This document shows positions 1-785 of a stretch of DNA of 43,322 nucleotides, in pieces. This DNA is from Escherichia phage PSK2. The stretch lies in sequence record PP541514.1; one strand, given 5' to 3'. A model generated the notes under the pieces. It worked only from the letters and a program-made list of their open reading frames with translations, made no database searches and was not told the DNA's origin. Position 1 is the first letter of the stretch; each line of letters begins with the position of its first letter. Made by a program: the position numbers and the translations under genes.

Positions 1-10
1 GGGGGGGGGG
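1..10. other. G10 homopolymer at the extreme left end (probable non-biological end sequence)
   Basis: Ten G; a matching G10 occupies the extreme right end on the same strand. Confidence 0.4.
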
Positions 11-500
11 CCGTCTAGATGGCTAGGTGGCTAGGTGGCTAGACGTCTATATGGCCGTCTAGGGCGCACCAGGAGGGCCGTAGAAGCTCGCTGCGAGGCT
101 TAAGGGCTATCACTGGTGCTATCCTATGCTTACCGCTATACGCTCCTTGTAGGGCCTCTGGGAAGCTCTGGGAGGCACTAGGGAGGCACTGGGGTTATCT
201 CTGCGTACTCTCTGGGTGCTCTGGGTGCTCTCTGTGGGGTATAGAGGTGCGCTCTGCCTTGCTTATTTTGTGAAGCCATAGAGTGCGCCGTAGTGGGGCC
301 GTAGTGGACCACCCAGTGCGCTGGCAGAGTGACACGGCGCTATCACTAGTGCGCACTAGGCTATCCATTGGCTATCCTTAGTACTTTACATTGTGCCGAT
401 TATATGCTACGCTGCGCGCTCCCCACTAGGGCGCACATCCACTACTCGCCACTATCCCTAGAGCTATCCCTTCTGTATCCTCTTTCATTCGAAAGCTATT
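1..500. repeat. Non-coding left terminal region with arrays of short direct repeats (GGCTAGGTG x2, CTCTGGGWGC variants, GCCGTAGTGG x2, GCTATCMY variants)
   Basis: No ORF with a ribosome binding site; several short motifs are tandemly or dispersedly repeated; resembles the repeat-rich terminal regions of T7-like genomes. Confidence 0.45.
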
Positions 501-508
501 CTGAAATG

Positions 509-525
509 ATGTTACAGGAGTAGGA
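509..525 (+). promoter_or_regulatory. Candidate phage RNA polymerase promoter, copy 1 of conserved 17-mer ATGTTACAGGAGTAGGA
   Basis: Perfect 17-nt match to copies at 21699-21715 and 33279-33295; sits in the non-coding left end about 260 nt upstream of the first gene. Confidence 0.4.
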
Positions 526-785
526 GGGTTTTAGGGAACTACATACATACTACCTACTACTACTCACTAGTGTTCACTAGTAATGCCCTATATTACGACC
601 GTAGGGAGTAAGCATTACCTACACAGTCACCGCATCACTACGTGCCCTTTCACTTCGTACGGGCACTACGTTCTGCTCTATGTAGTGCTAGATGGTATTA
701 GTTAGCATTGGCTAGTATTGGTTACAGCCATTGGCTACATAGTGCTATCTCTAGAGCTATCCCTAGAATATATAAGGAGTTATAC

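Follow-up and report, generated by a model that had tools for sequence, protein, structure and literature searches.

The first 785 nt of Escherichia phage PSK2 (record PP541514.1; the window, i.e. the whole 43,322-nt stretch analysed) are best read as the ordinary non-coding left-end control region of a Drulisvirus, a member of the T7 supergroup, in which a direct terminal repeat of predicted length ~309 bp, represented by one collapsed copy, is followed by a rightward promoter for the phage RNA polymerase (RNAP). We put the probability of this joint account at about 0.85, and the arrangement is largely already described in related phages.

Of the 245 phage records that match the first 1400 nt, nearly all belong to Klebsiella, Escherichia or Shigella Drulisvirus (Autographiviridae, Slopekvirinae), and Escherichia phages EC22.5-2 and IK_ECO1 and Shigella phage SFN6B are ~91% identical to a 20-kb stretch of the genome body over ~85% of that stretch. 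From the record matches and the body identity the window is, judged by its sequence, a complete or near-complete KP34-like phage genome, new at roughly species level. Statements on conservation are based on an 11-genome alignment (the window and ten relatives) that spans the right end joined to the left end. A second comparison set consists of 32 IMG/VR contigs fetched by a promoter pattern in which the TTCGAAAGCTA part of the palindrome at 482-495 was fixed.

The original prediction of a non-coding, T7-like left end of a T7-supergroup phage, with short repeat arrays and a phage promoter, is borne out. No convincing open reading frame (ORF) is present in 1-785, the longest being 57, 51, 44 and 40 aa, and Pfam and PHROG scans of these four gave no significant match (best phrog_25098, E = 0.06, the sole match under the 0.1 reporting limit). 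The sequences of relatives across this region are separated by many indels of all lengths, and the ORF-free stretch is closed by the start of a nuclease ORF at 786.

The evidence for the terminal repeat is homology. Repeats are annotated in phages SAA231 (267 bp), KpV71 (246 bp), fHe-Kpn01 (222 bp) and KP34 (216 bp), and the blunt termini of fHe-Kpn01 were mapped experimentally by PhageTerm, ligation and Sanger sequencing (PMC7291057). All four repeats have CCTCACCCT as left boundary (within 1 nt) and GCGCTC as right boundary (within 2 nt), carry CCCCCATAGGGGG and a G-rich tract ~55 nt in, and are followed by TGCCTTGCTTATTTTG directly after the GCGCTC end. In the window CCTCACCCT is found at 43258-43266 and GCGCTC at 249-254, within a block at 244-272, and both boundary blocks are kept in the window and at least 20 relatives. 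The predicted repeat would thus comprise 43258-43322 and 11-254, and the following features are assigned at and beside it:

43258..43322, plus strand: predicted first 65 nt of the repeat, with the start CCTCACCCT (43258-43266), the palindrome CCCCCATAGGGGG (43282-43294) and poly-G (43313-43322), by homology to the four repeats.
1..254, plus strand: predicted rest of the repeat, with its end, GCGCTC, at 249-254 (within 2 nt); all relatives keep the boundary block GGTGCGCTC/TGCCTTGCTTATTTTG, at which the annotated repeats end.
43209..43251, plus strand: conserved block just left of the predicted terminus (GCACGTCTATACCTGGACCTGAAATTTATTAGACTCACGCGAG), for the most part kept across the 11 aligned genomes.

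The key to the topology is a feature absent from the earlier description: the contig both starts (1-10) and finishes (43313-43322) with a run of ten G residues, most likely one and the same tract. Indeed, the ten relatives align along the full length of the joined right and left ends, the junction runs uninterrupted through many permuted GenBank records, and relatives have a single tract of 10-15 G at the corresponding place. The suggestion that a direct terminal repeat had been collapsed in assembly is in this way upheld by homology with the repeats of four relatives; position 1 as the physical terminus is not, as the left end is predicted at 43258 and the contig was opened at the poly-G 55 nt into the repeat. 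This opening inside the repeat also explains why the contig ends share only short motifs. Such shared motifs do occur as reported, for example ACGTCTATA at 43 and 43211, but their number is at chance level (~0.6 shared 9-mers are expected by arithmetic between end segments of this size). The virion DNA would accordingly have its left end at 43258 and the ~309-bp repeat again at its right end, giving a total of ~43.6 kb, and concatemers would be cut at the two conserved boundaries, with duplication of the repeat during maturation as in T7-type phages. Predicted repeats are 212-297 bp long in 21 relatives; at 309 bp that of the window is the longest of the 22 left ends, and its length was accepted as that of a Drulisvirus repeat although it is the maximum of the sample.

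Within the block at 43209-43251, 10 of 11 genomes share the motif TATTA(G/T)ACTCAC without change, and the block could form a portion of the terminase recognition or cutting signal. It stops 7 nt before the predicted left terminus. The block also contains TTATTAGACTCAC, which we rejected as a T7 promoter: it merely resembles the T7 core, with GACTCAC identical, and ~5 chance occurrences of GACTCAC are expected by arithmetic in a genome of this size.

The second component is the promoter. A conserved 17-mer, ATGTTACAGGAGTAGGA, had been noted at 509-525; it is present there, recurs exactly at 21699 and 33279, and has a counterpart with 3 mismatches at 13311 (0.14 expected by chance). It had been taken as an anonymous conserved word, whereas it corresponds to the biochemically defined strong promoter of KP34 RNAP, T(A/G)ATGTTACAGGAGTA, which was established with its start at the next G by 5'-RACE (rapid amplification of cDNA ends) and in vitro transcription (Lu et al. 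2019, PMC6834552). In this respect the observation is not new. In KP34 the copies lie at nt 475-490 (TGAT form) and at 22197-22212 and 33721-33736 (TAAT form) (PMC6834552). The PSK2 counterparts are:

507..522, plus strand: KP34-type strong promoter, S2 variant TGATGTTACAGGAGTA, predicted to start rightwards at G523; exact match, homologous to KP34 nt 475-490.
21697..21712, plus strand: KP34-type strong promoter S1 TAATGTTACAGGAGTA, 6 nt past the RNAP stop codon; exact match (PMC6834552).
33277..33292, plus strand: KP34-type strong promoter S1 within the ORF of the internal core protein (32534-36232); exact match (PMC6834552).

Each of the three 16-mers is followed by GGA, and the first 12 transcribed bases equal those of KP34 at every site. 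The genome encodes a cognate polymerase, an 822-aa ORF at 19223-21691 that is 95% identical to KP34 RNAP. In fHe-Kpn01 ACAGG is replaced by ACCGG at all three promoter sites, a concerted change such as would be expected of a recognised signal, and KP34-like promoters have been predicted in 135 genomes (PMC11880802). Given that the identical sequence is active in KP34, the promoter at 507-522 is probably active from G523 in PSK2 as well. Once the phage RNAP had been made from its gene ~19 kb downstream, the left-end promoter would drive rightward early and middle transcription.

An intergenic sequence at 13309-13324, TAATGTGATACGAGTA, shares 13 of 16 positions with the KP34 strong promoter. A gene begins ~20-40 nt downstream of it, and KP34, KpV71, fHe-Kpn01, ZH5 and EC22.5-2 all carry it unchanged. 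It may be a fourth, variant phage promoter, absent from the account of Lu et al. 2019. The "Kp34likevirus phage promoter" proposed in 2015, AGCCTATAGCGTCCTACGGGGCGCTATGTGAA (AGCCTATAGCGTCC...), is absent from the whole window at up to 3 mismatches, and this motif is inactive with KP34 RNAP (PMC6834552).

Two conserved elements precede the left-end promoter:

384..436, plus strand: 53-nt block with no indels and few substitutions in 11 genomes, the most conserved block after the promoter.
482..495, plus strand: palindrome CTTTCATTCGAAAG, without variation among the 11 aligned genomes, spanning -41 to -28 relative to the predicted start.

The 53-nt block holds TTTACA (385-390), a 17-nt spacer with TG, and TACGCT (408-413), all unchanged in the aligned relatives, and may be a host-type, extended -10 sigma-70 promoter, a candidate proposed from these elements. 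The palindrome is missing at the two other promoter copies.

Short direct repeats are the most visible character of the region, and every motif that had been listed is found at its place:

GGCTAGGTG: repeat pair at 21 and 29.
CTCTGGGAGG at 166 and CACTAGGGAGG at 176: repeat pair.
CTCTGGGTGCT: repeat pair at 210 and 219.
GCCGTAGTGG: repeat pair at 287 and 298.

The repeated 8-mer score of 1-785 is 64, against 10.3 +/- 4.1 (maximum 25) in dinucleotide shuffles and 8.7 +/- 4.5 in other 785-nt windows elsewhere in the genome, and 9 of the 27 tandem arrays detected by Tandem Repeats Finder (TRF) in the whole 43-kb window fall here. GCTATC occurs eight times in 1-785, on the plus strand every time, at a density 31-fold higher than in the remaining genome; CTAG is 6-fold denser than outside (~3 per kb). 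Over 33 distinct left ends the degenerate form GCTAYC occurs 272 times on the plus strand vs 12 on the minus strand, most commonly at spacings of 11, 12 and 21 nt and with the extended consensus GCTATCCCTAG. The main clusters and arrays are:

106..123, plus strand: GCTATC cluster 1 (GCTATCACTGGTGCTATC), inside the repeat, its position kept in relatives.
158..234, plus strand: 9- to 11-nt tandem arrays CTCTGGGAAG, CTCTGGGAGG, CACTAGGGAGG, CACTGGGG and CTCTGGGTG x2.4 (TRF); alignment indels fall exactly here.
287..307, plus strand: GCCGTAGTGGG x2, from a variable GGGCC(A/G)TAGTG-like array just right of the repeat, with 1 to ~5 units in relatives.
339..376, plus strand: GCTATC cluster 2, three copies at intervals of 21 and 11 nt, immediately before the 53-nt block.
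451..480, plus strand: GCTATC cluster 3 (CTATCCCTAGAGCTATCCCTTCTGTATCC), upstream of the phage promoter, repeat family D1.
695..737, plus strand: iteron-like decamer tandem array GTATTAGTTA GCATTGGCTA GTATTGGTTA ... CCATTGGCTA, family D7, 2-6 copies in relatives.
744..766, plus strand: GCTATC cluster 4 (GCTATCTCTAGAGCTATCCCTAG).

Differences in repeat length between relatives arise because the copy number of the arrays at 158-234 varies. The next most repeat-rich place in the genome after the left end is 15736-15836, inside a 277-aa ORF (15022-15855), with a 9-nt tandem repeat CCGGTAGCG in ~8 copies plus CCAACTGCC x3.

Several points weigh against this account of the left end. The contig has only one copy of the repeat, split over both ends, and the predicted PSK2 termini derive from homology, not from doubled coverage or read-start pile-ups. 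Conservation among relatives is incomplete directly to the left of the cut site; a common cutting motif, GCSCTC, before both boundaries was discarded, as roughly one relative in three has GACAGGG(C/T)C on the flank of the left boundary. Phage NKA196 is annotated with a 167-bp, differently placed repeat. We rejected this repeat as an alternative terminus, as its annotated span, from the final base of the tailspike coding sequence to 13 nt past the poly-G, looks like an assembly effect; we found no literature on SAA231 or NKA196. On the side of transcription, we found no report, for any Drulisvirus, of use of the left-end promoter in infected cells. The candidate sigma-70 promoter falls below the consensus-scan threshold and has a weak -10 (3 of 6 positions in the second hexamer), and the sole strong sigma-70 match in the first 2.2 kb scanned, TTGACA-N17-TATAGT at 1522-1550, lies outside the region. 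Finally, none of the arrays has a known binding protein.

Downstream of the promoter the predicted transcript would begin with a leader that contains two hairpins:

523..580, plus strand: AT-rich leader, GC ~37-44%, opening with conserved GGAGGGTTTTAGGG, then TACTAC and (T)CACTAG repeats in variable copy number.
581..617, plus strand: hairpin A, outer stem TAATGC/GCATTA, inner stem CCCTA/TAGGG.
642..666, plus strand: hairpin B, stem GTGCCC/GGGCAC, 13-nt loop.

Some relatives have an alternative module with the architecture of hairpin A, in which the changes ATGTC/GACAT to ATGGC/GCCAT and GCCTA/TAGGC to GCCCA/TGGGC are compensatory. One stem pair of hairpin B is C-G in 7, U-A in 4 and A-U in 2 among 14 distinct sequences, and other relatives have unrelated hairpins at this place. 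As candidate RNase III processing sites of the T7 R0.3 type, hairpins A and B show a few compensatory changes but short stems of 5-6 bp. The RNA fold of the whole leader (523-785) is no better than that of shuffles (z = -1.39), and an Rfam scan of 1-2200 gave no match at E <= 1.

The best surviving alternative is that the left-end promoter and the AT-rich sequence downstream form a transcription-primed origin of replication, with the decamers as iterons, in analogy to phiOL, a secondary origin of T7. GC content does fall to 37-44% in 441-640 from 54-67% in the repeat, although a promoter followed by AT-rich DNA is a weak indication alone and an AT-rich leader is equally expected of a plain promoter and 5' untranslated region. 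The period-10 array of 2-6 copies at 695-737, and the region -41 to -17 including the palindrome, which is invariant at the left-end copy of the promoter only, are also consistent with an origin. However, we found no mapped origin in the literature for any KP34-like or phiKMV-like phage, and the cumulative GC skew climbs steadily without ever reversing and is uninformative. We regard a primed origin as doubtful, with the odds clearly against it; it is possible as a function added to the left-end promoter, with which it would be compatible.

Somewhat less probable again is the view that the short repeats are functionless, slippage-prone filler free of coding constraint. Array length and copy number do vary freely among close relatives, and predicted repeats range from 212 to 309 bp. 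Yet phages only ~70% identical in this region retain the motifs, their strand (272 vs 12), their 11-12 nt spacing and the places of the four GCTATC clusters, and CTAG is concentrated six-fold in 1-785. Since motif, strand and position are kept as copy number drifts, protein-binding arrays are expected rather than neutral filler; most likely the arrays are bound by the packaging machinery or by a regulator of the left-end promoters.

A more specific proposal is that the arrays are operator-like, MetJ being recruited to the first-entering DNA and the GCTATCCCTAG pairs, which are located just upstream of each left-end promoter-like element, binding a regulator of early transcription. It stems from the following array:

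9..62, plus strand: 8-bp tandem array GGCCGTCT AGATGGCT AGGTGGCT AGGTGGCT AGACGTCT ATATGGCC, with flanks GGCCGTCTAG at 9-18 and 53-62 (TRF periods 8 and 16; families D2 and D14).

Set against a tandem run of five MetJ boxes, AGACGTCT, the stretch 9-48 agrees at 30 of 40 positions, compared with 21 for the next best site and 10 +/- 2.6 for the genome background; its unit at 41-48 is a perfect box. Two or more tandem 8-bp units that resemble the met box are thus present, the resemblance being post hoc. In the alignment the array is confined to the E. coli/Shigella clade, where a three-box version is kept; the ZH5 counterpart (11-34), GGCCGTCTAGACGTCTAGATGGCT, matches 20 of 24 MetJ-box positions. 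Within the terminal repeat the PSK2 array occupies the stretch 75-115 nt from the predicted left terminus, and no promoter was recognised beside it. We consider this operator-like reading as a whole very unlikely, and MetJ recruitment improbable because the resemblance was noticed after the fact and follows in part from CTAG occurring every 8 nt. If true, the host methionine repressor would be recruited to the first DNA entering the cell.

Less credible still is that position 1 is the true left end, the terminal repeat being missing or merely trimmed. The linear contig does start there, comparison of the first 1000 with the last 1500 nt found no repeat, and the ZH5 record likewise begins at the poly-G. 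The final 65 nt of the window are, however, homologous to the opening 65 nt of the four mapped or annotated repeats, and 11-254 to the remainder, and the G10 at each contig end fits a break within one homopolymer tract. Moreover, the ZH5 record opens with an assembler overlap (by k-mer) of 127 nt, and the EC22.5-2 record has one of 77 nt; each overlap begins or finishes exactly at the poly-G. Assemblers evidently tend to break here, as the overlaps of both records abut the same tract. The RCIP0111 record has a tandem duplication of ~115 nt that ends in poly-G and looks like a homopolymer assembly effect.

The weakest alternative, that the 17-mer marks a site-specific single-strand nick and not a promoter, draws on the presence of a nick in fHe-Kpn01 DNA (PMC7291057) and on site-specific nicks reported for phiKMV-like phages, an idea that Eriksson et al. 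propose for another Kp34 motif (PMC4411677), but can be set aside, as the fHe-Kpn01 nick at nt 7873 coincides with none of the motif copies at 485, 13777, 22076 and 33616, and promoter activity and start site of the 16-mer were directly demonstrated (PMC6834552).

The non-coding region is bounded on its right by the following gene:

786..1340, plus strand: EndoVII/HNH-type nuclease ORF (phrog_1035, E = 1.4e-23).

This ORF is present in KpV71 and RCIP0111 and not in ZH5, SAA231, KP34 or fHe-Kpn01, and its presence in only some relatives marks it as a mobile insertion. It is followed by a terminator-like hairpin at 1345-1379. Elsewhere in the genome, a rho-independent terminator at 26170-26207, GCCCCTGGTGCCTTCGGGTGCCGGGGGC plus a T run, is conserved after the capsid region in Kp34-like phages.

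The main value of these results is practical. The PSK2 contig appears to be permuted by 65 nt and to lack the second copy of the ~309-bp repeat, and its coordinates, length (~43.6 kb in the virion) and terminus annotation need correction. The copies of the 17-mer at 21699 and 33279 are the known phage promoter and should not be scored as a new element. Defining the roles of the conserved left-end elements (the GCTATCCCTAG pairs, decamer array, 53-nt block and palindrome) would yield packaging and replication signals of the kind needed for Klebsiella or E. coli phagemids on this backbone, a modest and unsurprising advance.

Comparison with known systems places the PSK2 left end closest to KP34, fHe-Kpn01, KpV71 and SAA231, with which it shares the repeat start CCTCACCCT, the palindrome CCCCCATAGGGGG, the G-rich tract, the right boundary GCGCTC/TGCCTTGCTTATTTTG and the order of conserved blocks up to the promoter. 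It differs in its longer repeat (309 vs 216-267 bp), the extra length being due to extra short-repeat units. The promoter 16-mers are identical to those of KP34 and occupy the same places: at the left end, just past the RNAP gene and within the gene for the internal core protein. These sequence identities and positional homologies suggest that PSK2 behaves like the relatives in which termini (fHe-Kpn01) and promoter activity (KP34) have been demonstrated. In the phiKMV-type phage LUZ19, in contrast, the phage-specific promoter of the early region points the opposite way (PMC10914365). The left-end promoter of PSK2 has the position, and would have the role, of phiOL in T7 and T3. In those phages short repeat arrays flank the terminal repeat. 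Their left arm comprises the terminal repeat, host promoters A0-A3, phiOL and the RNase III site R0.3 (PMC3276506), and the window has the same order of repeat, short arrays, rightward phage promoter and stem-loops ahead of the first genes. The sequences are not similar, however, and promoter specificity differs. The RNAP gene of the window lies at 19-22 kb, unlike the T7/T3 gene in the early region, and its strong host promoter (1522-1550) is downstream of the phage promoter, whereas in T7 and T3 the host promoters are upstream.

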